A stretch of DNA of 63,153 nucleotides, the filler included, from Hausera hauseri (taxonomy: Eukaryota), in NCBI GenBank assembly GCA_046269625.1. It is 12 parts of 12 records of this genome, joined end to end, with 100 filler letters (N's around TTAATTAATTAA, not from the genome) between each part and the next. Parts side by side here need not be neighbours in the genome. Positions count along the whole stretch, not along the records: positions 55,100 to 59,073 come from JBJURY010846413.1; 11 more parts are not named here. The stretch is one strand, 5' to 3'. Position 1 is the stretch's first letter. Every line of letters begins with the position of its first letter. Below the pieces are notes generated by a model. It was given only the letters and a program-made list of their open reading frames with translations, did not search any database and had not been told where the DNA came from. A program made the position numbers and the translations under genes. Of the stretch, positions 3,117-62,408 are shown in pieces.

Positions 3117-4667
3117 ATGTTCAATAAATGTATAGAGTTAAAACGACTTTCTTTTGATATTTTAATCAAAACAGTGGACAAAAAACATACGTTATTTGCT
3201 GCGATATATCACAAAATTCTCGCGTTGCAGGAAAGTGATTGTACGTTGTTTGTGCAGCGGAATTTAACAGGCGATATTTCCATGCACCAACTAAACGTGA
3301 TTGCTAATTTTATATTTGTGCCTTTACTAACTAATCCCAAGGATCGGTGTCTGATATACCGTCATCCCCTCAATACTATAATCGGTACTAATATTCTCTC
3401 ATAATTGACAAAAACGCACTTGGTGATTTAACAAAAATACACCATTCAGTAAGACATCTGTGCCCCCGTCGAAAAGAATCAACAATAGTACCATTTGTAA
3501 TGAACATGTTAGTTCAGAATGAATTACTTTTAGGAACACTGATTTACGGTGGTTACAACTTGCCTGCATTTATTGTTGTTATCGTATTACCTTACGAAAC
3601 AAGATCGATTCTGAAGAGCCAACGATCCACAAAAGTGAATAACTAACTGACAGTTACTATATCGAAAAAGAAGCTTCAGAAAAGGAGTGGAAGGCCTAAA
3701 TCAGTCAGACTTATGCCAGCAACAAAAATACAAAGTTGACAAAATTAAATAGAATAATGGACAGTATGAAATTGGTCGAAATTTTCATAAAAATACATAA
3801 AAAGGCAAAATAAACCGATAGGAATATCATCTTGTCCCAATATTCCTCGAACTCAAGGTCAAATACTTGTCGATTATCGACAATAGTAGTTCCTATCCGA
3901 ATTTCAATTACCAATCAAATAAATCAGTGAAGGATATGATTGCCCTCATTACATCCATATGTATATATGCTATTAAATATTCTAATGTGTATTTATTGAT
4001 GAATAATAAAATGGCAGATTTTCACCAAGATTCAAAATACCCATTGATTATGGCAATGGCCAATATTTTGATTAGAAGCCAAACGTCAACTTTATTGAAA
4101 CGGAAGCCATTGTTTGAAGAAATCACAATGAAACACCAATTTTACAATACGATAATACCATTCGACGTGGAAATGCGTAGAGAATTTCTCGTCAAATATG
4201 ACAATTCAATTACTGGACAAGTCCGAATTTATCGCAATACATTTCCTACATTACATCAAACAAATGACAACAAGACAAGCAATTGTAGAAATGTACCGTC
4301 GTATATTTCTTACCGACATAAAACACAATCGAGTAGGTTCAGAGACAAAAGATTGGAATGCTTTGGTGATGCTGCTATTCAACCAATTACGGGTATTCGT
4401 CTGTTTAATATATTACTCGAACTATCCGAGGGGCATCTCGACGCCTTTTGCCAGGCTTTTGTTCAGAAACATTATCTAGCTGATTGGTCTGTGAGATTGG
4501 GTTTTCATAAACTTTTACTCTACACGCATAATACCAATTTCCCATACGATTCACTATTCACCCATGCCAGTTCAGACGCTTACAAAAGGTTCCTTTACGC
4601 ACAAGTTATCGAATTGACCGAAAAAATGAATTCTTTGGGTCTTACCACACTGAACCTTATACACTGA
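3117..4667 (+). pseudogene. Unknown ORF(s) downstream of the LTR head (putative cargo)
   Basis: ORFs 3117-3404 (95 aa) and 3867-4667 (266 aa), co-oriented with the element. No recognisable domain. Confidence 0.4.
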
Positions 4668-23706: not shown

Positions 23707-25138
23707 TTCCTTCTGACATTATTAAGGGAAAAGGTATTTTTCCATATACTGCATCCAAATCGTTCAGTGACTTGCAGTCTATTAATGAGTTGCCATCGAA
23801 ATTGGATGGTGTTAGTGTTATTGATTATCAGGAAGCACAAACGGCTAGGTTGAAATACAGTTATAATTGTCTTTTAGATTATATGTTGGTGTACATGAGG
23901 CTCGACGTATACTTGTTAGGGGATATCTTTGAGTGGTTTAGAAAGGAGGTTAAGTTGCAGGATGGTTTAGAGGCGGTTAATTTCCTTTAAATTCACGGTT
24001 TATCTTGAGCAACTGCACTAAAATCCAGTCACGCTAAGGTTGAGCTCATTCAGGATTCTGAGATGTACAATTTCTTTCAATCAGGTATTCGCGGCGGTAT
24101 GACTTTTGTAAATAAACATAGGGTTACCGCTGATGAGAAAACCAGTCTCTTGTACATAGATGTAAATAATTTGTACGGTTGGGCTTTATCACAACCTCTG
24201 CCATTTGCGAATCTGAGTTGGATTTACGATGAGGATGTCTTGACTAGTCTGATACAACAATTACTTTTTATTGACTGTGTGAAGGGAAAACGAGGCTTAG
24301 TCTTTGAAATTGACTTAAACTGCAGCAAACAATCCTTTTGAAAAAGACTTTTTTAAGCTTAAGAACAACTGCTTATATGGCAAAACAATAGAGAATTTGC
24401 TGAATAGGTCAAATTTGAGATTGTGCAATAATGTTAAAAAGCTAATCGCATATGCTAATAAGGCCCAGTTTAAAGAGAGCATAATAATAGCCGATGATCT
24501 GGTTGCCGCTCTCCTCGATAAAGACAGTCACCTTACATAGACCCTCATACATTGGTCAGGCCGTACTTGATCTTTCCCAGTTACCGATTTATGAGCTGAA
24601 TTATATCGACTAGGAGACATATAGGCACCAGTTTCAGTGTGAACGTAATATTGTTTCCGGTGACACAGAGAGATTTTTCATCGAATGCCATGGAGTGGAC
24701 TTAAAATCGCAACTGCTACCGGTAATGATAGCAAATGAGCAGTTAGATACATGGAACTATGACAAGAGTGATCCACTGTACTCGACTCGTTTTGCAGCTG
24801 TAATAGGCAAATTTAAAGATGAAAGTAAGGGCTGCGTTCAGCATCAAGAAGCGATTTTCCTACGTCCGAAATCCTATGCCCTCAAAACCAAAACCAAACC
24901 AATCCTCAAATGCAAAGGTATCAATCTGAATCAAACAGACTTGCAGTTCAGTAACTACCTACATGCTTATGAAACGGGTTACAGCACCATGGTGGACCAG
25001 GAGCGAATTGGCAGTAAAAACCACCAACTTATGACAATGAGCTCAAAAAAGAAAGCACTGGACCCGTTCGATGACAAACGCCACTGGATTGAGAAAAACC
25101 GGAGTGTTGCATATGGACATTACTGTATAAATATGTGA
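23707..25138 (+). mobile_element. Polinton/Maverick (adintovirus-like) protein-primed DNA polymerase B, C-terminal half, pseudogenised
   Basis: KGIFPY, DVYLLGDIFEWFR, GIRGG, YIDVNNLYGWALSQPLP, FFKLKNNCLYGKTIEN, FKDE, LRPKSY, KCKGI, DDKR. Frameshifts and an apparent internal deletion after FEIDL. Confidence 0.93.
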
Positions 25139-27793: not shown

Positions 27794-28526
27794 GCTAGTT
27801 CAGAAACTGTCTCTTTAACTCGTTTCCTGGGGGCAATGATCTTGGAGTAAATTTCGGTTCCGTGTATTTCTCTAATTAATACTTCTATCAGGATGTCATT
27901 TCCGTCGTCTCCTTCTCCGTAGTTTAGGGCTATGATTCTTGTATTTCGTTCGTCTTGGACTAGTCTGTAGAACTGTAGATGCTCGTCTCGGCTTTTCTCT
28001 TTTGACATTTGTTTGAACATTAGAGGTAGAAGTTGTATATAAGGGGCATCTTTGTAGGTATCTTCCATCATAATTTTGACAAGCAGAGCGGCAATACTGA
28101 ATCCCAACTCATTCCTTCAAGTTTTCACTATATAGCTGAAAAGTGCTAAATCTGACTTGCCTTCCTTCATTTGCGTCCTAGTTCTGCCCTGATATCCGAT
28201 AGTAAGTTCGCCTTCAGCTAGGTGGATGAAGATACGTTCGCAGTATACGGGCTCATACGCAATTAAATCTTTTAGTGTATACACTCGGGCATCCGAGTTG
28301 TTCCTCATTGCATAGAGGAACATTTCTTCAGAACGATTTTCTTCAGTTGTACCTATTAAATTATTGTGGATTCTGCTGATCTGGCTGAACTCAATGAACG
28401 TTTTTTCAAATAATTCGGTATTAATTTGTCGATAGATCGACTTGGATTTAGGTACGAGTACAGTAACTCATTGATGCTGTGTCTCTTTTGATCTTCGGCT
28501 TTCATCGTCATTCTAGTACTTACCAT
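27794..28526 (-). pseudogene. Unknown ORF 3' of the family B pol
   Basis: ORFs 28117-28323 and 27794-28107 share a frame, separated by a single TGA. An upstream ATG at 28526 follows an acceptor-like TTTTTAG and needs a frameshift to join that frame. Confidence 0.4.
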
Positions 28527-29669
28527 TCTAAAAATAAATAAATAACAGTTAATACTAAAACAAAGTATTGTTTTAAACTAAAACCAATTCTTTGTTTGAT
28601 GATGGAATAACCCGATCTGTAATTGTAAAGTTATTCTATCATAGGTACTATTTCGGGTGTCATTTCCCTTAATTCCCTTTCTTCGATTTCATGGCGCTTA
28701 GACTGAATTTTTGGTAAATAAACGAAAAGCCGCAACAAATATTAGAACGAACGCTGATAGTCCAATAAGTGATGAAATTGGCAAGGTTGTTAATCCAGTC
28801 GGTTTTGTGCAGTGATTGGAGTTGTTATTTCATCGCCTATATTTTCGCCTAGACGGGGTTCTGCGTGGGTTTCATCTAGAGTGGTGAATGTCTTGTTTAC
28901 CCTTTGCGTATATTTGTATTACATAACCCGACTGTTGTTTTAGTAAGTTACATTCTGTCTGATAACTATTTTTAAACAGTGCCACAATTTGGTTATTATA
29001 CAATGTTCGGCAACTTATTTGAATATCATAATTTAGTTTTTCTTCCATGGAAAACACAATTTTATACTGCTGGGTCAAGTATTTAATGGATATACTTCAT
29101 AATTCTCTTTTCTGAGTTCTATCTGACGTGACGGTATTCATTCGAGTCGTTGACTTCCTTGTCGCTTCAAACGAAATTTTCCATATTTGACCTTCCGAAT
29201 AATATCTCAAATAGATACTTGATTTATTGGGTCGGAGTTGATAGAGGTAAAACTGGATTTTATACCGTAACCTCTTGGTATTTTACAATATGGTTTCGGT
29301 ATTGTAGACCCGATGCTACAATAATCTGATGATGGGGCCGATTTATTTAATTTGGTTAATTGGATTGAGATCACTCGGTCATCAGGTAACCTTCCTTTAG
29401 TTTTAATGTTGTTACAGCTATTTCTTTTATCTTCTGAGATATCAATTATATTCTCATCTAACATTCCTTTTCGTGGGTCGGCTGATCGGTTCATTTCGCT
29501 AAATTTCACCTTGTTTGTTTTATTCTGTTTTGGCACGTTTATTTCGAGTTGTGCAATTATGTATGCCTGAGGCCCGTAAAAATAATCGTAGATCATTTGA
29601 AGCCTATATTGGTAAGTCCGTCCAAAATTTAAATCACAACATTTTTGTACAGTTCCGTAGGGTAAATCA

Positions 29670-31075
29670 CAATCTCATTTTGAGCCCATCTACATTTCTT
29701 CGGGTTCAATTTTAATCATGTATGTTCTAATCGCATCAGCGTATCTTCAATATATTTCAAACGTTCTTCTGTTCTTGACACTATCATTACATCGTCTAAG
29801 TATGCAAATAAGCGGTCCAGTCCCATGAACAGTTTATTCATCATTCTTCTAAAAATGGCCGGTCCAGTTGCAATAGCGAACGACATAAGATTGAATTCGT
29901 ATAGAACATCGTGCATCTTAAACGCTGTTTTATAATGGTCTTTGTCTTCAATTTCTACTTGCCAATATCCGGATTGTAAGTCCAGAGTAGTGAACCATTT
30001 TGCTCCTGAGAGTCTAAGGCTTCCTTTACGAATGGCAATAGGAAAATCTTTCATCATGAGAATATTTACTGCTCTGTAGTCGATGAAAAATCGATTTTTC
30101 GTAATACATTTCTTTTTTAACCATAAGTATCGGCAAATACCAAGATCTGTAGCTCGGTCTAATTATGTCGGCTTTAAACATTCGTTCGTCCCCTTGTTAA
30201 TTTGGATCTTAGCGAGTGGGGTCAAAGATAACATTTGGACATCTTCTGATCTTCAAGATCAATTTTTTTATTTGATTCAGGCTTTTTCTTGAGCAGAATT
30301 GTTAATCTTAGAGCCTTAGCTCTACCAATATCTTCATCCTTAGAAATGATTGGTTTATAATGACATAATATGTCATAGAAGCGACAATATGATTCAGATA
30401 AAAATTTAGTCTCAATATGAGCTGGAAATTCAGCGCATTTATAAGGTTTTTCTTCAATGATTATTGATGATACTTTATACGTATGGCCTAGAGTAGTATC
30501 AGCATATAATTTAATTGAAGGTGGCGCATTATTAACTAATCAGATCGGTATACGACCTGAGGTTACTCTTGTTAGTACATTATTAAATATAACATTTGGA
30601 TTTAGCGTTTCCTTTGGCTCGAAATATATCATCATCTTGTCCAATCTGTGCATAAATCAGCATCTTCCTTCTAGGCGGAATTCCTTCATCTACCGGAATA
30701 CACACTTCTCTGAGTTGTCAATCTTTTGTAGTTTTTACCTCTTTTATCGGTCCGAGTTCTATCAATTTACCGGCGTGCAATTCTACTGCGACATTCGGTA
30801 GTTGACTCAATAAGTCACATCCGAATACATCGTCGGTTAACTGTTCCATTACTGCAAATTCGTGGTGGAAATATTGTCCCATAAAGTGACCTTCGGGATT
30901 CCATTTGAACATCGGTCTCGACATTTGACTGAAAGCCCCATACTGGATACAATTGTTTTCGTAACATATGCGGTATTGAATTATTTTTGATATATAACGT
31001 TTCAGAGCCTGTGTCGATTAAGGCGTAAACGTCCCCGTCTTCGATACAAATTTTGCCGAAGGGTCTTCCTTCCAT
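29670..31075 (-). mobile_element. Ty3/Gypsy family B protease and RT (copy 1), truncated after RT
   Basis: EGRPFGKICIEDGDVYALIDTGS (protease), KWFTTLDLQSGYWQVEI, AYLDDVMI, LKLNPKKC. Collinear with 56720-57980. Confidence 0.93.
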
Positions 31076-31837
31076 TTCTCTTCCGTAACAATTTGACGCA
31101 ATTTTTGGCGCCTAATCGTCGATATTTTATGTCCATTGATTCTGATTTCTGGAGAGACAATTGTATTTTCAGCTAGTTGCTTCAATTCGCCATTCGGGTA
31201 TAATTCATTGTTTGCAATGTTGGAATCGTCTGTTTCATGGTTACTGATTAGTGTTTCTCGATTATTCGTATGCGGCTCTAGATTTCGAAAAGTTTGCGTT
31301 CTTTGATTTCCTCAGACTGTTGATCGGGTTTCTATATTTCGAGTTATTCTTGGAGAATATAATACTTTGTGATCATCCACCTTCTGTCGGCGATAAGGCG
31401 CAGTATTTTTCTTCGCTCCCATGCATTTTTTGAAAAACTACATATTGTTTCGTTCTTCATAAGGGTTTTCGGAACTAAACGGTCTTCTATAGATTTCTGT
31501 TTGATACGAGCTTATCGATCGTTTGTCAAAATCGTAGTACATTGCGCCGTTGGAGGCAACATAGGTTGTTGTGACTTTATGACAGAATACGTTTTGTGTT
31601 TGTTTATTCTGGAGATGGCATCTCTTCCTTTAGGCTCATTATCATCTGAATTGTTCTTCCGCAATTTTGGGATGCGAAATTTTCGTCCATATAAAAATGA
31701 GTTTCTCTCAGAGTTTTAGATTATGATAGCCAAAATGTCGTTCTACATCAGTTTTCCACCTGCATCCTTCATAAGCCTTCAGAAATTTTCCGAACGGTGT
31801 TATAATTGCAGTCAAAATTTTACATGAAAATCCAGTT
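31076..31837 (-). pseudogene. C-terminal part of chuvirus-like glycoprotein ORF directly upstream of protease (copy 1)
   Basis: TGFSCKILTAIITPFGKFLKAYEGCRWKTDVERHFGY...EIRINGHKIS, homologous to 55985-56704. Confidence 0.85.
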
Positions 31838-33545: not shown

Positions 33546-36500
33546 TTAAAAAGATGGTTTGTCAACAAATTCCACAGAACAGCCACCCTTACAGTTCGTT
33601 CCTTCCAGTTCAAAAACCTGAATTTTATTCACACCATTCACCAGGAAATTCTGTGGAACATAAAGAGCATATTGTGGTCCCTTTGTATTCCAATAACGAC
33701 CGACATTTTCTCCATTTATCAAAAGAATTCCTTTAGTGAAACCTTGTATCAATGCATAAGTGTCATTTGGTGTTCCATTTATCTTCAAAGTGGCACTGAA
33801 TAAGCCAGCCTGAGTTGGAATTTGAATTCTATATAAAATGATTGAACAAGTAAATGAAATGTCAAATAAAATTACAATTTTTTAGAATGGGTCTGATCAA
33901 ATTGCATTTTACTGTTGAGTATTTCATCAATTTTTGTAAAATTTATTGGAATATGTTTCCAGTTTGTCAAAATCTGGCCATTTATTGAAACGTTACCAAT
34001 GATACCCTTAAAATACAACGATGATGATGTTTATCATAAAATGGATGAGGAAATGTACCTTCAAGTCATTGAACATTGAATCACCAAAATTCACGTGGCC
34101 AGAATTTTCTGTCAGCACAATCAATTCTTGTTGTGCAGGTACGGCAATTGATAACTTTTTCATATCTCTGCTTAACACGCCGATGTAGTTCTTAATAAAA
34201 TGGAAATGATTAAAAATATCAAATTTAACCATTTATTCAAAATTGTGATGAAAAATATTTTTATGAAGTTCCATGATACCAAATGATACTTCTTGTCCTT
34301 CTACATATGCAACTTTCATATTTTTATTTGCACTGAGGCATTGGCATACTTTTGATATCATTTTCCATAACATTTCTCAGCGTTATTTTGTTTATATCTC
34401 AGCAAATCCAGCTATTAATTAACATTCACGGACAGGTCTCCATTAAATTTTTGAACGGTGTCGAAGATCACTTTTCCCTGCGGAGTACTTAAGGTTTTGA
34501 CATTTTGTCAAATTGAAATCCATTTCCAATATTTTTAAGAAACCAAAAGTGTCTTTGCTACTTTCCTTATTGATGCTTTGATATTCTCGTAAAGTCTGCT
34601 ACGCATAGACTTGTGTCGATGTTAACAACTGAAATTTCATGTGGGTTATTATCACCACTTTCCTTTTACACTCGAAGGTGAATAGAACGCTTGTAGTCAT
34701 ATACAAATTTAATTAGGCCATATTTCTGCAGAATGAATGATAAAAAGTGACAAAGTATTTTTAATATCAAATTTTATGTCGACTCACATTTCGTGAATGT
34801 TAGTGATTTAGAAAAATATTTTAATTTGATAATTATTAATAATAAAAATAAATAAAATATAAAATGACACTAACAATTTGTGAATAATCCGAATTACTCG
34901 TAAAAATGTACGCATAATCACCAATTCGATCAATTGTCACAGTTACTTGCTGTCCGGCAAATGATGACGTGTTAGTCTCATAGATCATATATCCTTGATA
35001 CTGAAAATTAATTAAATTATAACAAATATTTTATGACGTCTAGAGACGAATATTGTTGAGAATTTGAAATTCAAAATTTCAATTTGTCAAATATTTTATA
35101 ATGATATGCAGTAATTGACTAAATAGGTACCCATTATGTTAATAGACTCTTATGCACTACTCTCCCATTCTACTAAAATGAACATTTGAAATTGTAACAA
35201 AATTTCTTAATGCGCATCTTTCAAGTAGAAAATACAGCAGATTGTACAAATTAACTTAATGGTCATTTATTTGGTCAATTACTGTAAAATTCTGATTTGA
35301 AAATTCTCAACAATATGACACAATTATTAACTCAATTGCCTACATGTCTCAAAAATTCCATCGGCTGTGGATAAGTAGAAACTGTTGATGGACCACCGAG
35401 AAGTTTTGGTAAATAATCCATGTTCTGCGTTACATCCAATTTACCATACGCGACTTTAGTGATATTAGCTGGTACGTCTGGTAATGATCTTTCTGGATAG
35501 AGCTGAAATCAACAATTATGAAATGAGAAAATGTTAAGAAATAGTAAACCTTTTGCAGAAGATTTCTCAAGGCCATGTACTTTGATGTAATGTCTCCTGA
35601 TTCCGATATTGGTGCATTATAGTCGTAACTGCTGATCTGGGGCTCGTAACGAGGTTGATTATTGGCTCCTGATTAAACATAATTTAATCAATATTTATTT
35701 TAATAAATTCAAACAATAAATTACCATTCCAGAATCCGAATGATGTACCTCCATGGATCATATACCTGTAAAGTAAAATCATTTGGTCATCAAGTAGTCA
35801 GAATTGTAAATCCTTACAGGCTAACACTCACACTTTTCGAATACGTAAGCATTTTCTCTAAACCATATACAACAGCATTTGAATCTACGACAGTATGTTT
35901 CTGTCCCCACGGATCCAACCAACCAGTGTAGTATTCAGAGTTTACCTGAATTAACAATGAGAATCAGATAGTTATGGTATAATGCAAAATATAAAAATTG
36001 ACAATAAAATCTTACCAATGGTCCTTTGGGTTGCCAACGTTTCAAATTCCCAAAAGCCCATTCTGGATTTTTGGCAGCTAAAATAAAGAAATGGTTAGAA
36101 ATATTCATTTTATTAAAAATTGTAAAAACAAACAAATTACAGAAAATGTATTTTTGATAGACACGAATAGACTTCCGTGAATGAAATTAGAACTAGTTAT
36201 TTATAATTTTCAATATTTTAGAATACACGGTAGTTTTGATACATCTGTATGTGGTTGGTAACTTGACGGATAGAAATATGTCTTACAATGAACGCCATTA
36301 GGATTTTATTGCGATGCAGATTCCATTAAAATGTGTCATGTATGCAGATATCAATATTATAAGAATTCTACCAACATTTTAGTTGCATTTATTCATTTTT
36401 AACAAAAAATTGATTTAAAAATTTTTTGTTTAAATTATACAAATTATTTATTTTCATGGCATTGAAATGACCGAACTATTCACAAAATATATGCACGAAA

Positions 36501-39016
36501 ATTCTACCTTAAATATGGAATTACCATAAATAACTTTTGAAATTCTCACATGAATATAGTTTGAGGTTTTACACCGAAAGTTTTTACATCCAAAGTTGGG
36601 ATTTTCTGTGTTCGTGTACTTTTGGATTTTATTATATTCATTATCCATAAGCATTACAGTAACACTGATTCACACTAACTCATCATAAATACACAACGAA
36701 AAATAAATAATACACACAAAATCTGAATATTTGGTGACAAAATTTCAATGGATTAACCATCATCATCATTAAATTGTACGTTAAAACAAATTTTCCAATG
36801 ATTTTCTGGTAAATTGCAATGCCAAAATGTAGCAAAATAAATCTGTGAATCCGTGAAAAGCAGTGGAAAATTTGTTTGCTATAATATACTATTTTACTGA
36901 TGATGATGGTTAATCCATTAAAATATATTTATAAATGACGATATTTAATTTTATGCACAAATTGTGACAAAATTCTTATAATATTGATTTCTAAATACAT
37001 GACAATGCTTAATAAAATCTGCGCTGGACAATCCAAAAGTGGGCCTTGTTAATTGGACAACGTATGCAATGGATTTTCGTATCAGAGTTACCTGACTACT
37101 CTACCAACTGTTGAATTTTTATCCCATCTCTGGCTATATCGAGTTAAATGGAAAAATAGTACATTATATATTTAAAATTTTGTAGAAAGGACCTGATTCT
37201 GATACTTTTAAACGAAAATTAGTATACATGTACGGAATTGAAAGATTATTAACAAAATAAATTTAAACGGATATAAAAATGTTAATGTTCCATTGATGTT
37301 CTGTAGAAGTAAATAATATTCATTTAGTAATCAATCACAAATATTTTGAATTACTTATAAAATATTTAATGCAAATAATTTTTGTATTCCAAATAAATTC
37401 ATTCAAAATACCAAATAGAATTTTGTTACCTCAACTATTTTCAGCACATTCCATTTTAGTCTACTATCGCATGTTACAATTCAAGTGCAAATTGTACTAA
37501 TATACAACTAATATCAGTTCATATCATTACAAATATTCACATTTGACCAGACAATATTTAGAGATAAAATTATTGTTATGTGATCACCAAAATATTCCAA
37601 TGACATAAGAAATAGATAAGTCAAATATAACAATGATAATTATTGATATCATGTAAAAATTACGCAATCATACCATCTGTGTTAAAGTCCACAGTTGCGA
37701 ATACCCTTTTATCAGATGATCCACATTTGAAATAACCATAATTGTTTCCCTCAGTTGTATAAATGATTACATCCAGACCTAGTTGTGATCGGACAATATC
37801 ATACAAAGTTTTGACATATTTTCCATCACATGTCTTGTATAATCCATACTCATTTTCTATCTAATGAAAATTGAAATGACAAAGTCGATTAATTTTACTT
37901 GGACCATAATGATAGAGCCATTATTTTGATACAAATGTGGCTTGAGTATTGGTAATAAAACTGAGTACCAATTTTTTACTGCTTGCATGTATTCTAAATA
38001 ATAATAATAATAAAAGTAATAAGATGATGATTAGGAAGAAGAATATTTGATATAACTTTGTGCTCAATAAAACGTAGAATAAACAAGTGAAAATAATTGG
38101 TTAGATGAATGAACAGTCCAACATCACCAACAATGAGCAATGATGAAAATAAAATTACAAAGAGCAGATGGTTCAGAAATATGTATTATTTATGTTTTAA
38201 TAATTGAATTAATTGTATAAAATGCCTACATTTATTGTGAAGTAATTTACACACAAAATTCAAATTTCAATGACTCACCAATTATTTCAAATTGATTGTC
38301 TAACATTTTATCAAATTTGAAATAAGAAAGATGTTTTTAATTTGCTGCTATAACAAAAAATCATCCAACTACTAATTAATAATTTATCAATTTGTTTATT
38401 AAATTTCTTAATTAATTAAAATAAATCATTACCAGGATCTGATGAACGCAACACCATTTTGGGATTTTTCCTCAGTAGCCAAGCAGGTAAACCACCCTAC
38501 CAAACTATCAATTAACAAAATTCAAACAAACAAACGATAATTACAAAATCCCATTCACCACAAATGTAAGGACCACTACGCAACAAAACCAGCAAATCCA
38601 ATTCTCGAGCAATTTTCAAAAATTCATCGAGATCTCTGTCACCTTTAAAATTGAACTGTCCTTCCTCAAATTCATGGTAATTCCACGGGACGTAGCTACA
38701 TCGTATTAACCAACATTGCAACATTCATTAAAACAAACAATTGAATTGCATTGGCCCCCATCGCCTTCACCCGCTGTAGTCGATCACGCCAATATTGTCG
38801 AGGAATTCGGAAGTAATGAATGCTACCAGCGACGTATTGAAATGTTTGGTTCTCCTTCAGAAAAATATTTTTGTCATAGTCAATGGTGAAACTGCGATCG
38901 GCGAATGAAATCTCACAGAGAAATCCTAACAAAAGTTCATCAAAATGATGACAAATGAACAACTTACCTAATAAAACAAATGATAAAATTGGCAAATATG
39001 CAATTTGACGATTCAT
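33546..39016 (-). CDS. GLB1: Beta-galactosidase (GH35, GLB1-like), multi-exon host gene
   Basis: Signal-peptide-like start, then [45 protein letters not shown] (acid/base Glu), [13 protein letters not shown] (nucleophile Glu), [47 protein letters not shown] introns, e.g. 38926-38967 (42 nt) and 38696-38738 (43 nt). Confidence 0.95.
35050..35316. repeat. MITE-like inverted repeat in a GLB1 intron
   Basis: ATATTGTTGAGAATTT (35050-35065) and AAATTCTCAACAATAT (35301-35316) form a perfect 16-bp pair. Inner pair CAGTAATTGACTAAATA/TATTTGGTCAATTACTG. Confidence 0.65.
36747..36919. repeat. Foldback/MITE-like hairpin in a GLB1 intron
   Basis: Perfect 22-bp arms AATGGATTAACCATCATCATCA/TGATGATGATGGTTAATCCATT, plus inner 14-bp pair AAACAAATTTTCCA/TGGAAAATTTGTTT. 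Confidence 0.75.
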
Positions 39017-40184
39017 CGTAGAATTGCAGGGAAATTTGATATTTGTGATGAGTTTTCAGGGGGTATAAATAGTGTTCTGTGGGGTTAGCCTTGACATTGA
39101 AAATTTTATTCATTTAAACAAATGGATTGATAAATTTCAGATATAAACTGTAACTATAACAATATGTATTATATGAATGATGAAATTTGGACTTCTTGAA
39201 TACATTCAACATTTCTTTTTTGTGCCATTTTGTTAGCAATAATAAATAAATTTATTTTTATTTACTTATTTATGTACTATAGAGATTGTACAATAATCAA
39301 TATTTTTAACATTTGTTGAACAATTATGATTTAACAAGATGATAATATCATTTGTTAGATATTTTATTGCCATTATGATCTTTCCTTCACAAACAGTATT
39401 AAAAACTTCCTTTGTAAACAAATTGTAGAATCAATGAGATATGCATGGGTAACCACATAAGTTCAATGAAGTTTGTAATAAGTGAAATAATTCCCTTATT
39501 AAATCAAACACTGTTTAATAAACAATATAAAATTATTGATTATTTTATTATCTGTAGTGTCCATATACAAAATAAAAAAATAGTAAATTTCTAACAAANN
39601 NNNNNNNNNNNNNNNNNNNNNNNNNNNNNNNNNNNNNNNNNNTTAATTAATTAANNNNNNNNNNNNNNNNNNNNNNNNNNNNNNNNNNNNNNNNNNNNAC
39701 TGTTGGAAATATTTTTACAGTTTTCAGATCGTCCTTTTACTTACGTTGTCATAGATCTCTTCTATTACTTGATTGCTACTCACTTCGCATTCTATTGAAA
39801 TATTCACAGTGGCATCGGTAATTGGCCTTTTTTATTTACAACATTAAATTAATTTGGGTAAGCTTCAGCCATTTTGGGATTTTGCCTAATTTTCAAATGG
39901 TAGAAAAATCTCAATTTGTCTAATTTTCTCGGTTGGTAATAGATTGAACTAAGTAATTTCGATTTCCAGAAATCGAAAAATTGATCATGAATATTACAAC
40001 AAACGGAGTCGCGGGATAGTATAATACATATAATCAAATTCATCTACCTGTAATCTGCGTATTGGCCGCAACATGCTCAGCCCGCCGAAAATGAATCCTT
40101 GGATCGTCGGTCGGTTTCTAGATCCACAGAATCGGAACGCCTGCGTGCAGGAATATGGCTGAAATTTCTGACACCATTTACCGG

Positions 40185-45669: not shown

Positions 45670-47050
45670 TAGTTGTTGCATGCTGCACCTCGATATGTGC
45701 CTGTAAAATTGCATTGATCCCTGACTTTATGATTTTCCTTGGTGAAGGACTTGTCGCACCATTCTTTAGCTTGTTTCCACGACATACTTATGTTATGCTT
45801 ATGCTGCTGAAGCCTGTTTTCAAGCTTATGAGCCATATCTTCAAGTCGTTTAATGAAATGTGCTGCTGCACCTGGGCCTCTAAATAGAAATAATTCGCTG
45901 TCTAATTCTTTGGTATACATGCAATACGATGAGAGTTCATGATATTGATATGCCGTTGTGCATCTATGTTGGGGATTAGGGCTACAGCTGTGAATTGGCC
46001 GGAGAATAGCTTCAAAGTCGCAATATATATCTATTGAGACCTTGATCTTCTTCTCGAACTCTTTGAATTTAGTATAATCCTTCTTGGAAAATTCTGGTCT
46101 GATACAGTAATTGTTGCTGCAGTACATTTTGTGCTGAGCAAGCTTGTCCACGACCTCATCGCCGCTGAAATTGGAAAAGCATCGTTTATATATTTCTATT
46201 TGTCAATGATGATTCGTAATTTGGGATCTGACTAGATGCTCAAAGTTCTTGATCCAAACATAATGTTTCTTTTCTCCATCGTCTTGTAGGAGCAGATCCC
46301 TATGATCTTCCAATTTTATATCATATATCTGCAGGGGATAAAATTTCTCCTCATCCAATCCAATGATGGTGATGGATATGTTGTTGATTTGGCCGAACTT
46401 CTTAATTTTATCTAAGGGTGGACAGAATGTGATACATTGGAAGTCATAGTTGTGCTTCAGATCATTATATAGTCAAACTCGATCTTCTGTATGTTTTTTA
46501 TGCGGCACTAGTTTAGATAGAATGGCATACATGAAACACATGTTGTTATTATTATGGACATTAATGCATGCTTTTTATTAGCAATCCATTCCGGAAGCTG
46601 AATATAAGAACTGCCCCGCATTGGAGAGTACTTGTGAACATACAGAAACAATCTCTTGATGGTTGCCAGAGTCCATCTGGTCCACTCTGGATCTTATCAG
46701 CTTTACGGATCAACTTTGCATGCTCTTTATGCAATATATTATATTGGTGGCTTCAAAAATGGATCTATATCTGGTCTTAAAGGCCCTCTTGGACTCTTCG
46801 CCATCAACTTTGACGTATGTGGCCTCAAGTTTTATATTAGCCTTAATGGCATTGAGCTCAGTAAATGTTGTCCTGGAGAATCCCCTCTGTTTCGTCCTTT
46901 GTGTACTCCAGGAACTCCTTGATGGTTGTTTGACGAGTTGCATCAATGACATATTTGCGGAATTTTTGCTTTACTGGTGCACCATCACCTGGCCGCTGTC
47001 TTTGACTCTTTGTTGGAGCCGCTGCGTCCGATGCGTCCGATGCGTCCAAT
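45670..47050 (-). mobile_element. Polinton/adintovirus-like pPolB N-terminal half, pseudogenised
   Basis: IKANIKLEATYVK...AFKT, GSSYIQLPEWIANKKACINVHNNNNMCFMYAIL, HYVWIKNF, IYCDFEAIL (ExoI), VRDQCNFTGTYRGAA (endonuclease-VII-like insert). Confidence 0.92.
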
Positions 47051-52639: not shown

Positions 52640-54999
52640 TTATAACCAAGCATTGATTGTGATTTTAATATAGAATGATTGTGCTGAACAATTTTCACTG
52701 GTACCGAATGCTGTTGAATTGAAATTGGTACCGTGTGAGCTGATCTGCCTTTGTGGTAAAAGGATATTAGTATCTGCGATTTGGGAAGCCGTTCCTTGAG
52801 TTCGAAAACTTTTCGGATAGCTATTATCACTTTTGCCTATCGTATACTGGGACCTGATCTGAAACGTGAAACTGTGTTCGTGTGATACAATCTTGAATTT
52901 ATTTGTATACCGATTATTCCAGTTCACAATGAAGCCAGTTATTGGTGCCGTACGGTCACTTGTATCACGAGATTTCCGGCCTTTCTTATCTCCAGCATTC
53001 GCGAAGAGAAAGGTTGTTTTATGGGCATTGAGTCTCGGATAGTTGGATTTATCAATCCGCGAATTATCCTTGTACCAAATCAAGTTGAATTAGTGAGTTC
53101 AAATATCGAGCCCATTTGTCCCTCAATTTCTGCGTCAGAGTCAAGATCTGGCTCAGGGTTAGCTGAAGTCTCTTTGCTCAACTGACTGTAGTCCCTTTCT
53201 TTTTTGGGAAAGTCCTTTCTCAAAACTTTCAATTTCTCATTAACGTCTCGAACGATGGATAAGGTCGTATTCGGTCGATCTTGCAAGTTATTCAAAAATG
53301 CAACACTTTTATCTAAATCCGTATTTAAATCTTCGAATTGCTTCAAAACATCATAGGGAGGACTCACTTTCTCTGTCCAGTGTTTCTCCCACTAATTAAC
53401 CCGGTTTCGTCTCTGTTTATCTGCAGTTAGACATGTCTCATTGGCTGATTTTTTAATCATTCACAAATGGCAGGAAAAGATTCCGAATATTGCTCCAATA
53501 TTGGTCACATCTACTCTTCATACTATTATGATCATTAATTGTTAGATATACAATAACATAATATTTAATTGGTAGCAACGTGGGTCGGAACCACGCTCTG
53601 CTACCATTTGTTAGAGATACATAATAATATTTATATAAGAAATTCGTTTCGGTTGGGGGATTTAAATAGTATTTAAGTGGTAGACTCGTTTTTATATCAC
53701 ACGGTTTGCTGGGCCCATTTCTAACAAACCTTTTCCTATTGATCATACTACCCGATTCATATGTTCTCCCGTTAGACTCATCCATTTTGAATATCCCCAT
53801 AATCTCCCCATATCCCTTTCCAAATATATAAACATATATAAAACCTTTTAATTCCCCAATTTTCGCAACCGTTAATATCGGAGGGTTGCTCTCCGGGGGA
53901 GCTTCTCCACCATTAATTTTGCTGTAAACTCTCAAACTGATTTTATCAGTCATACAAACCCTGGCAGGGTTCATCATACTAAAAGAACGAAAATGAACCA
54001 CAACGATATTATTCATATAACATTCTAATACCTTTATCATCCTTCCCACTTCAAACGTAAAAGCATCAATAGAGTTCCATTTCTGTATCAAAGTTATGTT
54101 CTGGGTGTTTTTCCATTTAACCATAATTTCGTTTAAATCACAAACATTCATGGAACTGAGCTTTCCAAATAAAGCAATCACGTCTCGACGAATGAGTTTT
54201 TGAACGTATGGTAATTTTAACTGATTACCAATTCCAGAATCTGATAATCTTCTTTTACATATTTTTTCATTAACTTGTGTTTTAGCTTCAGGATTATATT
54301 GAGATATAGACATAGATGTTAATTCTAACACTTTATATCCATTCATTAAATTCATCATCACAAATTTCATTCTTATCACTGGTAAATTGAAATTCATAAT
54401 TTCAGCTTGCGATTCATAAATATTTATCCACTTCATTTTATGCCAAATCGCTGATTCAAAAGTTAAATTTGTAATTTCTAATCGTCAATTTGCAATTATT
54501 CCCAATTCTAAATTCAATTTTTATCATGATCAATTTTAATTTTATATAATCATTCTTATACTGTTATAGCAGCAATGCATTTTGTTCAGCAACTTTAATA
54601 TCTTCCTGATAGCTGCTAAGCTCATTTACTTAATTTCCATTATCAATTTTTTTTAATTCAGTTCATTTTTTTTCATAACTTTCCTTGGCATTTATTGCCA
54701 CACATCCACATATATACAATTTATATACATACTGACAATCCAATCATAATTCACAGTTCTTTTATCCCATTCTGATTGAGATGACAATTTGAACAAAATA
54801 TTAGTTACGAAATACATATTATTATTCCAATGCGTGATCCATAATAATGTTGCCGAGAAAAGTCTGCAAGTTATGGTCATATTTGTTGTTATGTTGATTC
54901 CAAATATATAAATTATTCTCGCTCTTATCCATATCAAAAATCTGTTTATAATCTTTATAGACGTTCTTCTGATTCGGATTAATGAGTGCAAAGACAAAC
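52640..54999 (-). pseudogene. Long unknown ORF region upstream of gag, co-oriented
   Basis: ORFs 53453-54436 (327 aa), 53080-53367 and 52640-53083, plus an interrupted upstream extension. No confident domain. Confidence 0.4.
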
Positions 55000-55099: not shown

Positions 55100-56704
55100 G
55101 AAACAGAAATAAATGCAAAGACTTACAAACTAAAAACGCAGGATATCCGATTTGAGGATTATCTGAAAAACAGAGACGATTATTTCTTTTATAAATGGAA
55201 AGTCGGAATAACCGAGTTATATCATAAAATGATAACAAATGATTGTAAATTGGATATGGAAATCATGACGACAAAACTAGCTCTTATTTAAGCTATCCAC
55301 GAGTTAGCATCCCCAATAATTCCTATGAGAGAAGGAATTTTTTGTCGAGTTACCGGTGAAGTACTATTGACATACCAATGTGAGAAAAGAGGTACCAATC
55401 AACGTTGAAGAGAAACGCTGGATTCAGGAACTTCCCGTTATTTACTAGAATATTCCAAGGTTAGCCATGCCACTCACTAGAGTGCTATTAGACAATGCAA
55501 CTGAACCAACAATCTTTAAAGATTGAAAGCAAGCTTAGGAGAACCCATGTTTAGACGTAGCGAAACAGATTGGGTTTGTCTGCCAAATGGAGGTAATACT
55601 GCTGTTCCAAATAAATTAACAGGAACAAATCTCGCAAAAGGGATTACAGACGACAAGTTTCAAAACACCTCATCGAAGGGTACATATAGACCTAATAAAA
55701 TTGAAGCTTTCCGACAATTTCTAGCTTTTTCGCGACAATGCACACATGAATTAAATCGAACCATGGCTTTTGTAGTGGATGACACTCGATACCATGCTAA
55801 ATGGGAATCATTACTTGGCGTAAACCATTATCAGCGAGTAACCACAGAAATATTCTACAAAATTTGCGGAAGATTTTTGATTTTTGGCCAAGCCGCCTCC
55901 GGATACTTAGCAATATATTTTCTGATACAAATGATTAAAGCAGTCATCCAAGCAATAATAAATGGGTATGAAATATTTACATTGAGTGGATTTTCATGTA
56001 AAATACTGACTGCAATCATAACGCCCTTTGGAAAGTTTTTAAAAGCATACAAAGAAAATAGATGGAAATCGGACGTAGAACGCCATGTCGGTTATTATAA
56101 TCGTAAACGAAAAGGAAGGCCTATATTGTTGCAAAAGCAGAAATTAACAAAACCTAATATACGAAGAAATAATTTAGATGATGACGAGCCTAAGGGAGAA
56201 AAAGTACTTTCAGGAACAAACATATATAAGACATATTCAGTCATTAAAGCACCATTGTCTATGCTACCCTCTACCGCTCCAGTCTATGAAGACTGTGACA
56301 AACGATCAATGAGTTCATATAAGACAGAAATCTGTAAAAGGACAATTAGTTTACAAGACCCTTATAAAGGAACGAAACGTTACGGAGTCCTACGGAAAAT
56401 GTGTTATCGACAGCCCCTCGACGACCCCAGAATATTGTATTCCCCGCGAAAACCTCGGTATATAGAAACTAGATCAACTGTCTGGGAAAATCCAAGGTTA
56501 AAAACCTTCCAGAATATAGAACCACACACTAACAATCGAGAACCATTAATTAGTACACATGAAACGGAAGAATTGAACATAGAAAATAATGAACTACATA
56601 CAAACGGAGAACTGAGGCAATTAACGGAAAACATAGTATCCTTCCCAGAAATCCGAATCAACGGACATAAAATATCGGCGACCAAACGTCCAAAAGTTGC
56701 ATAA
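55100..56704 (+). pseudogene. Chuvirus/Monjiviricetes-type (class III, gB-like) fusion glycoprotein, C-terminal half plus long cytoplasmic tail (family B, copy 2)
   Basis: ELYHKMITNDCKLDMEIMTTKLAL, EGIFCRVTGEVLLTYQC, QELPVIY, PLTRVL, SKGTYRPNKIEAFRQFLAF and the membrane region GRFLIFGQAASGYLAIYFLIQMIKAVIQAIINGYEIFTLSGFSCKILTAII follow the order and spacing of chuviral G motifs as recalled. Confidence 0.82.
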
Positions 56705-58430
56705 AACTGTTTTTGAACAGTAATAGAAGGAAGACCTTTCGCCAAAATTATTCTTGAAGATTGGGAAGTTTACGCAATAATAGTTGGATAGTTTTTCCGT
56801 CATGAATTTGCAGTTATGGAACAATTAACTGACGACATAGTTTTGGGATGTGATCTACTAAAATGACTACCAAATATAGCAATTGACTTGCAAACAGGAA
56901 AGTTAATAGAAATCAGACCAAATAAAAATGTAAAGAACGCTAAGGATAGGAAATTTGGAGAAGTGTGGATATTAGTCGATGAAAACATTCCACCGAGAAG
57001 AGATAATAATTTATGCTAAAGTTCAACAATATAACGACCAACCGGTATATTTCGAACCAAAGGAGACATTAAATCCAAATATAGTACTTAGTAGCATACT
57101 GACAAGAGTACATTCCGGTCGTGTACCGATCAGAATACCAAATAATGCACCGACTCCCGTCAAGCTTCATGCTTATACTACTCCAGAAGATACTTATAGA
57201 ATGTCGTCTATAACTATTGAAGAAAAGCCTTATAAGTATGCCGAATTTCCACCTCATGTCGAAACTAAGTTCTCTCCTGAATCTTATTGTCGATTTTATG
57301 AATTATTGTACCGTTATAAATCAGTCATCACTAAAGACGACGAAGATGTTGCTAGAGCGAAAGCACTAAAGTTGACTATTCCTCCTAAGAAAAAGCTCGG
57401 ATCAAATAAAGAAATATATCTCGAGGATCAGAAGATGCCGAAATGGTACCCTCCGCCACATTCACTAAGGCCAGAGATAACGAAGGAAGTTGAACAAATG
57501 TTTAAGGCCGATATAATTAAATCTAGTTATAGATCTGGTATTCAGGCATCCTTATGGTTTTGCATTGATTACAGGGCATTGAATAATCTTATGATGAAAG
57601 ATTCTTTCCCATTACCATCAGTAAAAGAGGCTTTAGACAGACTCTTAGGAGCAAAATGGTTTACCACGCTGGATTTAAAATGCGAATATTGGCAATTAGA
57701 GATCGAGGACGAAGACCGTTATAATACGGCATTCAAAACGCATGATGGTGTTTATAAATTTAACGCCATGCCATTCGGTATTACTACCGGGCCAGCCATA
57801 TTCACGAGAGTGATGAACAAAATGCTAATGGGATTAGACCATGTTCTTGCGTACTTGGATGACGTGATGATAGCGTCAAAGACAGAAGAGAAACATTTAA
57901 AAGATATTGAACACACGCTAATGCGTTTGGAACAAGCCGGATTGAAATTAAATCCGAAGAAATGTAAATGGGCTCAAAACACGGTATCCTACCTTGGCCA
58001 CATAGTTAGAGAAGGAGGATCGAAACCAAATAAATCGTTATTTAACAAAATATCAGATTGCATGGAACCACAAAACCAGAAAGAGTTAAGGCACTGGCTA
58101 GGACTCTGCGGATATTACGCAACCTATGTGCCAGATAATTCAAAAATTAATGCACCTTTATATCGTTTACTTAAAAAAGGAATTAAATGGAAATGGACAG
58201 AAGTCGAACAGAAAGCCTTCAACGAGATGAAGAAGATAATAACAAGCGAACCTGTTTTACGGTACCCACACTTTAACTTACCCTTTATAATCAAGACAGA
58301 CGCCAGTAAAGAACGCATTGGATATGAATTAGCGCAGAAAAGAGAAGATGAAGAATTAGAACACCCAACTGCTTATGGAGGGCGTTCCTTGAAGAAAGCC
58401 GAGAGAAATTACTCTCTTACCATATTATAA
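56705..58430 (+). mobile_element. Ty3/Gypsy family B pol (copy 2): partly deleted protease, RT, RNaseH start
   Basis: IEGRPFAKIILED...VYAII, VLGCDLL, FCIDYRALN, AYLDDVMI, LGLCGYY, IKTDAS, AERNYS. Confidence 0.96.
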
Positions 58431-58433
58431 ACG

Positions 58434-59038
58434 TGTTGTAAATTGGTAGTGAATCACTGCAAATAAGCCGATTGTAAATCGGTTAACTGTGAATAATTGT
58501 TTACAAATATGCTCTGTGAATATTTACAACGTTAAATTAATATTTATGTGACGTTTACAATTAAATTAATATTTATGTGAATATTTACTACGTAAGATTA
58601 GAATGAATTGTAAATATTTACAATGAGAAATTGGCTGTATCAATTTGAAAATGGAAATAAATCAAAATTAATCATATGGAAAATATGAAAAACTGGATAA
58701 TCAATTGTAAATAAAGAAATCAGTGGATATATAAAGCAGTGCATGGAACAATGGAAGTAGTTGTTGAAGTTGTTGTCAAGATACGAAGTCAATTGTTAGT
58801 TTCCATTACTGAAAGCTCTTGTGAAGAAGACAGACGATATTGAAGATAAATCAGTTACCGAGCCAGAGGAGAAGCTCCCGTTATTCGATATTTCCTAAGA
58901 AGGATTCAATTGATTGTGCGATTGCAGAAACGTTTACGACGACTGTATCGTCGGATATGTATTTTGTTGTTTAATATATTTGTGTTGTAAAATTCGTTAT
59001 AGTTTTTCCGTCGCTCTTTAAGAGGGACTTGGACTACA
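58434..59038 (+). repeat. LTR-like/promoter-like block that truncates family B RNaseH
   Basis: Starts TGTTGTA. Repeated (T/G)TTTAC motifs, a duplicated TTAAATTAATATTTATGTGA, TATATAAA at ~58728, possible CTACA end at 59038. Confidence 0.4.
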
Positions 59039-60360
59039 TTAAGGTTTAAATTCTTATAAAATTCATAGTTAAGNNNNNNNNNNNNNNNNNNNNNNNNNNN
59101 NNNNNNNNNNNNNNNNNTTAATTAATTAANNNNNNNNNNNNNNNNNNNNNNNNNNNNNNNNNNNNNNNNNNNNCTTAAACTAATTAAAATTCGTTACGAA
59201 TTAATTGTGAAAGTCATTTTCATTAATGACAAAACACTATTTATTGTAAACTGTATAAATAGGAAGAAAGTGCTGGTATTTTTATGAATTAAAAACATAA
59301 ACGTAATTGCTATTTATCATAAATTGCTGTACAATTCACTAAATATTGAGCAGACTATATTGCTAATAAAAACTGTTTGCTTATTGCAGTTAAAATTTAT
59401 TTTGTGTGCATTGGTAGTAGACTTTATCAAGGCTTAATGAAGCAAAATTTGATAAATCTGAAAGCGAACATGCATAGGACGTCTTATATGGGTAATCCGA
59501 ATGTGACGTCAGATATTCGAAAACGAGTTTACAAACCTAATATTTTTCGAGTTTTTCTCAAAAACTCGGTCAAGCCTTAATTATTCTAAAAATCTGAGTG
59601 CACCAAAACCCTTTGTGGAATCATGATATGTATATATACTTAAAATATATGTAAAACATATACATAAAAATAATACATTTTACAAATAAAGTGAGCTAAA
59701 TTGCTCGGAATCGTCCTTCAATTAGGTCGTAATATTTTTTTCTGAGCTTATACTTAGATGACGAAGACAATAAAATTTAACTCGTGTAACTTGGGAGGTA
59801 GCAGCGCGGGTGTGTTACAGTGAGGATTTTGACATGGAGCATGCTACATCACTAAATTCAATGTTATCATCACTTTAGGCAGATTCGTTTTTATCATCTC
59901 TGGAACATGGCAAGTTTTATCTGTCATCTGGAACGCAACTAGATGAGCCACTTTCATACATTTTCCTTCGTTTTGACGGGTCACTGGTACTTTCATCAGC
60001 CAATTTCATCGTCGTGTATCCAGTTTTACCCTTTTGTGTCCATCTGGGTTTGATACAGTCGTTTATCCTCATTACATAACCAATCACTATTTGTATTCGT
60101 AACATCGAACATTTTCTTTGTTTTAACTACATTAAGCTTTACTGAGTGGTTTGCCTTTGACATAATTATATCAGTTGGGTACGCTTCTGCGAGTCATTAA
60201 CTAAAAATGAAAACAATGAATGATAATTAGGTAAATTCCAGTATAGGTTTGCATAGAACTGAATCAAAACTTACGTGACTTTTGGAATGTGCCGTATATA
60301 CAGATCTTATCAATACCGAAATGCGCAATTAAACTGAATTTACAATTTCATTTACATATG

Positions 60361-60619: not shown

Positions 60620-62408
60620 GTCTATTCGGTGTTTGATGAGAGATGTGCACCCTATGTCCCACTTTTTGGCCATGAATCCTTCTGCGTATTTCTGTATAAT
60701 GTTGAGTAGCTCTGTGTTTTCACGCACCTAAAAAGCTTCCTTCGCCCTGTTGACTCGTTCTTGGTTACTCACCTTACGGCCGAACTTGGCTTCCAGGTTG
60801 CATATATCTTGCTGTAATGTTTCCGTTTCCATGCTTTTCCATCCCAGTTCTATTCCGAATGCCTTTTGCAGATCCACACCATCTATTATTTCTGGGCGTA
60901 ATTCCAACACTACCAGAAATGTCATACGTCTCCTTATACCCTTGATTTCTACGTCTGTTGTAAGTGTGCCCAGGAAATCTAAGGGACTATTGTTCACGCA
61001 TCGCAGTGTGGTATCTGATTTCTCCATGTGTGTGTTTGCAAGTTTATCCACGATCTTTTTGCTTATGACGTTTACCCTGGCCCCTGTGTACAATAAGCAA
61101 CATTCCCATGTCTTGTATCTTTAATTTTATTCCTGGTCGCCCATTAAACTTCCTGTATGATATCTGTTCGACATACAATTAGTCTAGCGTGAAGATCTGC
61201 GTATCTTTCCCACTTTCCTCCATTCCGTTGAAGTATACTTCCTGGAAATTCTCCGTTTTCATAAATTTCCGTACTTTTTCCTGTGTCCTTTTATCCATCA
61301 CCATATCTCCGTGTCCTCTTCTTGACCCGACTATACTGTTTGATATACTACTACTATGGGTGACTGAATTTGTTGTAGTGCCCCGATTTGCTCCACTTCT
61401 CTCGGAGCTCTGCCTTTTGGGGCAACTGACTCCTGTTGCGATTCTGTTTCCTCTTCCTCTACGTTTGCGACGTCCCCTGTCTTCTGTTCAGATTATTGCC
61501 GTACCTTCTTTTCACTTTTTATGTAACCCATCTTGGTTATCTTTTCCCCTCCAGCCTGCTGTAGCACACCTTTTCGGTATGTCCTCTATGGTGGCATCTC
61601 GCACAGCTAAGATTGGTACAATTTCGTCTGATGTCCCCTAGCTGACCACATTCGTAGCATCTTATTGGATTCCTTTCGGGACACTGCCTGCTTATGTATC
61701 CTTTTTTTCCGCATCCAAAACATTTTACCGGTCTCCGTACGGTGCAATATCTGCTCGTATGTCCTTCCTTCTGGCATGTCCAACACTTTAATTGAATATT
61801 TGATGTTCTGGTTTGGATCGTGTTGATTCTAGGAACGGATTTCCTGATATTTTGTGCTGCCACGTCTTGGTAGCTTCTTCTACCGACCCCGGATACTCCT
61901 TAACCGTGTTGACTTCTTCTGTCTTCCGTATTTTCTCCTTTATGGTGTACGCATCTCTTTTGTCACTGAGGCATATCTCTCTTCTTATCTCTCTGTTGTT
62001 ACAACATTTGATCGATTGTTCCACTTTTAGAGACTCGCGTGAAAGATTGTGCTTCATGACTTTATTTAGAAGTTTCTTGATTGTCTGGAAGTAAGCCTCC
62101 GGTTCCTCTCTATTCATTCTGTACTCAAGAGCTTCTTTCAGATCTTCGAACAGCGTTGAGGATCGGGCTAAAGCCTTCCGGAGTCTGTTTTGATACCCTG
62201 TTATTTTCACGACTACTGCCTCGTATCATTCTTGCGCTTTTTCCTCCAAGAAACATTCAACTATGATTTCCCGTTTCGCCGCCGTAGTGTTCATATATTT
62301 AAAGAATTTTTCACATGCTTTAATGAACTTCGCCACGTCGTCGCCTTTCCTGAATTTATTAAGCAACAATTGTTTCGCGAAGATATCCCTTGTGGCGAAA
62401 GTTGCCAT
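60620..62408 (-). mobile_element. Ty3/Gypsy gag and protease (fourth family), RT essentially missing
   Basis: Gag from ATG 62408, four CCHC-type knuckles (61537-61863 ORF), protease LL(Y)TGARVNVIS...IIDGVDL. Confidence 0.9.

Follow-up and report, generated by a model that had tools for sequence, protein, structure and literature searches.

The window analysed is a stretch of 63,153 nucleotides of Hausera hauseri DNA (assembly GCA_046269625.1) made up of 12 short contigs joined by N spacers, and it is filled mostly by decayed LTR elements together with an intron-containing host gene (33549-39055, minus strand; by eye GH35 beta-galactosidase-like). Such contents point to a repeat-rich animal assembly. 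A search with one exon of the host gene returned nothing. One of the elements begins at the first base of the contig at 55100-59073, the edge of which cuts into its envelope glycoprotein (Env). From there to 58427 on the plus strand this copy, copy 1, contains in order the C-terminal half of a chuvirus/gB-like fusion glycoprotein ectodomain, a membrane region, a polar tail, a protease remnant, a spacer, a reverse transcriptase (RT) and the first part of an RNase H. It is a dead, decayed copy. The Pol order protease-RT-RNase H, with RT and RNase H of gypsy type, places the element in Ty3/gypsy (Metaviridae).

Several other features were recorded in the window. A separate gypsy element (60731-62225, minus strand) has a conventional Gag with CCHC knuckles followed by protease, and an ORF lying between gypsy remnants (3822-4664, plus strand) resembles RNase III weakly, at an E of 1.3e-4 that falls below cut-off. 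Two further stretches (24009-25135, plus strand, and 45671-46472, minus strand) look by eye like a protein-primed DNA polymerase B of Polinton type, with no Pfam match for the two pieces scanned. A 343-codon ORF without a Pfam match (53456-54484, minus strand) stands at the end of the contig preceding copy 1 and is unlinked to the element.

The glycoprotein remnant (55100-55873, plus strand) is cut by the contig edge and contains at least two stops as well as frame breaks near 55390 and 55520. When 55100-56029 was written as one frame, with X at the stops, it matched the Pfam family PF24664 (Monjiviricetes_fusion) with E 4.4e-24; the ORF at 55520-56701 alone gave E 1.6e-17, and the separate pieces together matched profile positions 295-606 of 653. 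The original prediction, that a chuvirus-like glycoprotein lies upstream of Pol, was thus confirmed. In a feature atlas the three best matches were PF24664 clusters (0.91-0.93) and herpes gB was a lead below 0.9, the recognition score being low. A structural model of Env built from a 15-sequence alignment, with pLDDT 61 and pTM 0.27, places residues 17-62 in one long helix and predicts the membrane helices with confidence. A Foldseek search with this model returned no match at E 0.001, ranks 2-4 going to baculovirus GP64 and thogotovirus GP with E 1.7, and a PDB sequence search gave no match. Of the two checks proposed for the glycoprotein, therefore, the profile search was positive, whereas the structural search, made with a model of low pTM, gave nothing significant. 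Env is assigned to the gB/chuvirus class III type by profile rather than by structure.

The ectodomain is followed by the main hydrophobic segment (55874-55936, plus strand), a predicted membrane anchor that coincides with a hydropathy peak and with a high-confidence helix in the model. A second, weaker hydrophobic segment (55967-56029, plus strand), also a predicted helix, probably lies along the membrane rather than crossing it. Beyond it a polar tail of 215 codons (56057-56701, plus strand) separates Env from the protease. When copy 1 was compared with a second copy in the window (copy 2, below), third codon positions in the tail differed at 97 of 212 sites and the other two positions at 52 of 211 and 42 of 213. 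The protease read in the Env frame behaves in the same way, with 39, 20 and 12 differences of 87 and the third position again highest. The roughly two-fold divergence at third positions shows that the tail is coding and constrained in the Env frame. It contains no CCHC knuckle, nothing in Pfam matched it with an E below 0.11, 67% of its residues are disorder-promoting (compared with 54% in RT), and a single-sequence model gave two short helices only in what is mostly coil, although a mean pLDDT of 44 makes this weak evidence. These results support a coding tail without a recognisable capsid signature, and agree with the anticipated tail of about 210 residues lacking a CCHC or capsid-like motif. 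The end of the tail (56651-56680, plus strand) resembles, by eye, the first strands of a retropepsin and may be the stub of a duplicated protease.

The junction between tail and protease (56702-56716, plus strand) holds stop codons at 56702-56704 and 56714-56716, after which the protease starts in the same frame. The aspartic protease remnant itself (56717-56974, plus strand), recognised by alignment to copy 2 and by tblastn to the protease ends of the related proteins P0009, P0049 and P0052, keeps the Env frame with two further stops and lacks about 130 bases that are present in copy 2, among them the catalytic motif. A frame break near 57000 separates it from RT. The spacer between the two (57000-57260, plus strand) stands in the place of the dUTPase-like domain of the planarian element Burro; it has no Pfam match and aligns weakly to the same spacer in P0010, P0004, P0049 and P0052 (E 0.004-0.73). 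RT and the first part of RNase H (57486-58427, plus strand) match RVT_1 with E 1.5e-32 and RT_RNaseH_2 with E 2.4e-22; YLDD is found at 57852-57863 and RNase H stops at 58427. The claim that Env and its tail run directly into protease-RT-RNase H is accordingly borne out in copy 1 as far as the protease frame but not into RT, where the frame break near 57000 intervenes. The matched Pfam RT_RNaseH families are of gypsy type rather than BEL type. A BEL/Pao (Anakin-type) Pol was ruled out, as gypsy-type RT_RNaseH families were matched and no BEL-type family was.

Copy 2 (29678-31834, minus strand) comprises the end of the membrane region, the tail, protease, spacer and RT, interrupted by many frame breaks, and is 73% identical to copy 1 over 1962 aligned bases. 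Its protease retains the catalytic motif (31021-31004, minus strand), although the RVP match is weak (E 0.03). At the codons aligned to the two stops of copy 1 it carries no stop, but relative to copy 1 a single base is missing near window position 56689. The two copies had been said to share the same junction: the sense codons at both stop positions and the 1-base shift were found as described, but copy 2 starts inside the second hydrophobic segment and therefore carries no ectodomain. With two junction stops in copy 1 and a 1-base gap in copy 2, the two copies alone are not decisive as to whether the frame was open. No LTR was found flanking either copy, and no integrase was found behind RNase H or RT in either, both copies ending before it. 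About 1.9 kb behind the RT of copy 2 (27794-29670, minus strand) contains degraded coding-like stretches with no match in Pfam, in 15 relatives or in the rest of the window.

The state of the junction in the family was examined with two public runs, X1 and X2, both of which contain the family: 15,553 contigs of X1 and 1,003 of X2 align to the 3974-base contig. Most of the contigs aligned to 55100-59073 are less than 95% alike, which points to many diverged copies; the family is abundant. At 58957-59073 the depth in both runs climbs again to the family level, marking another abundant repeat, possibly the terminal part of the same or another element. Searches returned no intact member of the family and thus none of its Gag, LTRs or integrase, and no longer copy reaching upstream of 55100 was found in the searches made.

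Contigs aligned on 56620-56800 (588 from X1 and 22 from X2, 610 in all) were used for the junction itself; these were kept only if at least 80% alike, which favours the subfamily of copy 1. In X1 the first stop codon was altered in 92% of the depth (68 contigs) and the second in 98% (89 contigs) with no stop left, and X2 agrees. No indel reached a share of 2% among the 610 contigs over this interval, and among the eight X1 records listed all span the junction, seven of them without a gap. The contigs of X1 and X2 also differ by indels at the copy 1 frame breaks near 55390, 55520 and 57000, so these breaks are probably private to copy 1. The two junction stops are private to copy 1, and since no indel is shared, Env and Pol were once in one frame. 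This supports an Env-to-protease frame that is open in the family, as the original prediction had proposed for the consensus, on the evidence of the aligned contigs.

Relatives were sought by searching 1.84 billion representatives with 55520-56701, which gave 46 hits, nine of them at E <=1e-10, through the glycoprotein part. Seventeen of the 46, chosen for length, were scanned. In ten, a single protein carries PF24664 and then a protease domain, one case falling below the Pfam cut-off, and five were stand-alone glycoproteins; the other two were P0011, with a weak Bcl-2 match before PF24664 (E 0.001, below cut-off), and a spurious WD40 protein. Three of the ten Env-protease proteins continue through RT and RNase H, P0004 and P0009 to integrase and P0010 to RNase H. 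Two further cluster members, P0049 and P0052 (3003 and 4844 residues), have the order Env-protease-RT-RNase H-integrase. These five single-ORF polyproteins, P0004 (HBK71150.1), P0009, P0010, P0049 and P0052, are the best matches for both Env and Pol of copy 1, and the two regions, like the spacer, align to them collinearly. Identity to the family is about 27-29% in Env and 41-45% in RT, the tails being unalignable, and several relatives differ in carrying 2-6 protease-like domains after Env. In a tree of RTs the window copies fall in an open fork with the relatives and an unrelated window element. P0004, P0009, P0049 and P0052 have, after the integrase, a signal-like segment, an unassigned domain and a hydrophobic anchor, possibly a second surface protein. 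P0004, a complete knuckle-Env-Pol polyprotein, is deposited under a Flavobacteriaceae MAG as a hypothetical protein and is likely to come from an animal retroelement contig in a bacterial bin.

The same proteins bear on the position of Gag. CCHC knuckles or a Retrotrans_gag match (the latter weak, in one relative) lie upstream of Env in four of eight distinct relatives; in the other four the 133-505 residues that precede Env contain no sign of Gag, and these proteins may be truncated. No knuckle lies between Env and protease in 15 proteins. Env opens with a signal-like segment in P0004, P0009, P0014, P0018 and P0052. In P0004 this segment is at 368-386, and the remnant in copy 1 begins at residue 685, aligning to residues 685-1005 with 29% identity over 331 columns. 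Judged by this best-aligned relative, about 300 residues of Env and everything before them lie beyond the contig edge, which is why the window could not show Gag. It is most likely, by analogy, that Gag lies just beyond the contig edge, upstream of Env. Upstream, relocated and absent had all been left as options for Gag; the relatives, with Gag before Env in the same ORF, favour the upstream position and leave relocation or absence unsupported.

Among known systems, NERV, the endogenous retroviruses of nematodes, reportedly have a continuous gag-env-pro-pol ORF. As Sacco et al. 2022 is cited in PMC13524379, NERV have ENV before POL, as here, in nematode hosts, a comparison that goes by the description cited. 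Closer in layout is Burro (GYPSM1), a giant Gypsy element of planarians, in which Env is described as lying in frame between Gag and Pol, directly upstream of protease; its ORF of about 5000 residues includes Gag, BCL2-like, ubiquitin-like and other accessory domains, with a dUTPase-like domain between protease and RT, in an element of more than 30 kb (PMC6431247). Shared with that account of Burro are an Env related to mononegavirus fusion glycoproteins in frame before protease, a protease-RT spacer and high abundance (PMC6431247), whereas Burro's Gag, its BCL2-like and ubiquitin-like domains and its ORF size are beyond the 3.3 kb seen here. The element would work like Burro, to which it is likened by published layout.

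GAG-ENV-POL gypsy elements with a gB-type Env are reported by Chary and Hayashi from Nematoda, Bryozoa and Platyhelminthes, where they are not monophyletic, and the same authors describe arthropod elements in which gypsy Pol is accompanied by a chuvirus-like glycoprotein; nine flatworm and ten bryozoan elements are listed in supplementary file 1, and neither in-frame fusion nor the cytoplasmic tail is discussed in the main text (PMC13524379). With these errantiviruses, as described, the element has in common a gypsy Pol and a gB/chuvirus-like Env before Pol, and by eye the N-terminal Env motif of P0003 and P0009 resembles that of the Schmidtea elements in supplementary file 2; the published elements are intact, whereas copy 1 is dead and without the half of Env used in their alignment (PMC13524379). 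Anakin, the mosquito BEL/Pao elements with a chuvirus glycoprotein, likewise combines such a protein with an LTR element, but in a different superfamily from the gypsy-type RT and RNase H found here, on the accounts consulted (PMC10084718, PMC12440569). The idea that an Env-before-Pol fusion is a new layout does not survive these comparisons, an in-frame Env before protease having been published for Burro (PMC6431247) and the GAG-ENV-POL order for the errantiviruses (PMC13524379). The layout is unusual but published, and the finding adds one more divergent, abundant lineage.

The explanation that best fits these results, and one we regard as probable, is that copy 1 belongs, as a decayed member, to an abundant Ty3/gypsy family in which a chuvirus-like Env, tail and protease share one frame. 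The active form likely made one Gag-Env-Pol polyprotein, its Gag encoded beyond the contig edge on the upstream side. This explanation draws on the observed domain order, the shared Env-protease frame, the coding constraint on the tail and the layout of the relatives. An arrangement in which only Env and Pol form one ORF, Gag being a separate upstream ORF or joined by a frameshift or splice that allows more Gag than Pol, seems improbable. It would suit the four of eight distinct relatives that begin 133-505 residues before Env without a knuckle, and published ORFs are described as 'arranged as GAG-ENV-POL', the search tolerating as much as 2000 bases between ENV and POL (PMC13524379); but four relatives carry Gag marks in the same protein as Env, and the others may be cut at the 5' end. 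That the family lacks its own Gag, or carries it at another site, so that an Env-Pol polyprotein would use a borrowed or relocated capsid, is very unlikely. Neither copy shows a Gag and the 1.9 kb behind the RT of copy 2 is unassigned; both contigs, however, end inside Env, so the site at which the relatives have Gag is missing, and the 1.9 kb matches no Gag family and none of the 15 relatives.

The remaining two alternatives concern the tail and its junction. In copy 2 the base missing near 56689 puts the protease in the -1 frame, which would be the true state if a programmed -1 frameshift led from the Env tail into protease. This has been largely refuted and can be given hardly any weight: the 610 junction contigs contain no indel at a 2% share, neither copy has a slippery heptamer X-XXY-YYZ at the junction, and Env and protease are found in one protein in ten distinct relatives. 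Least probable of all is that the tail is a highly diverged Gag capsid, giving an order Env-Gag-Pol. The tail is coding, constrained and of about capsid length, and ENV-GAG-POL elements with a short Gag are described in two oribatid mites (PMC13524379), but it has neither a knuckle nor a Pfam match, it is richer than RT in disorder-promoting residues, its model, which is weak evidence, shows two short helices only, and the slot that corresponds to it in the relatives ranges in length between 62 and 322 residues and for the most part cannot be aligned.

For the single Gag-Env-Pol polyprotein that we favour, the relatives and the general rules for membrane proteins suggest how Gag, topology, processing and budding would be arranged. 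Gag would be made first and remain in the cytosol. An internal signal sequence, of the kind seen in the relatives, would direct the Env ectodomain into the ER until transfer stops at the hydrophobic segment at 55874-55936, leaving the tail, protease, RT, RNase H and integrase back in the cytosol but tethered to the membrane; this tether requires that the second hydrophobic segment does not span the bilayer. Where particles assemble at the membrane, cleavage by signal peptidase and by the protease of the element would then set Gag and the enzymes free, and a role in attracting budding or sorting machinery may fall to a Tyr-Pro motif at the tail's end.

This motif was found in the relatives. Their Env-to-protease tails (ten distinct proteins) are essentially unalignable, one pair excepted, and yet Tyr-Pro is the commonest dipeptide at the tail ends. 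A hydrophobic-Tyr-Pro word is present in the last 45 tail residues of eight of the ten, where shuffles gave 0.24 expected, and YPxL or YPx3L in five of ten, where 0.46 were expected; the pattern was chosen after the data had been seen and the relatives are not independent, so the shuffles overstate the enrichment. The corresponding position in copy 1 (56591-56614, plus strand) is without the motif, and the aligned stretch of copy 2 (31206-31183, minus strand) has one of LYPx3L type. Late domains of the LYPXnL kind bind ALIX. A sorting signal of the YxxPhi type, which is a rival to a budding signal, occurs in the last 45 residues of seven of the ten relatives (2.9 expected). LYPXnL is described as a class of retroviral late domain (PMC7995964). 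No paper on a Tyr-Pro motif in such elements was found in a literature search whose coverage excluded most subscription papers. The motif may be a budding or a sorting signal.

A tentative extension of these observations, which we would rate as possible but rather unlikely, is that in elements with an in-frame Gag-Env-Pol the tail of Env has taken over the budding signal from Gag: the motif, kept just before the protease in tails that otherwise have nothing in common, would recruit ALIX/ESCRT, and the Env-Pol tether would thereby also drive particle release; the present family would then be a separate, abundant lineage of this design, its RT being about 43% identical to the nearest relatives found. 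The family comes with good evidence of a single frame for Env and protease, and the Tyr-Pro motif of the tail offers a small, direct handle on how such polyproteins cross the membrane, are cut and bud.
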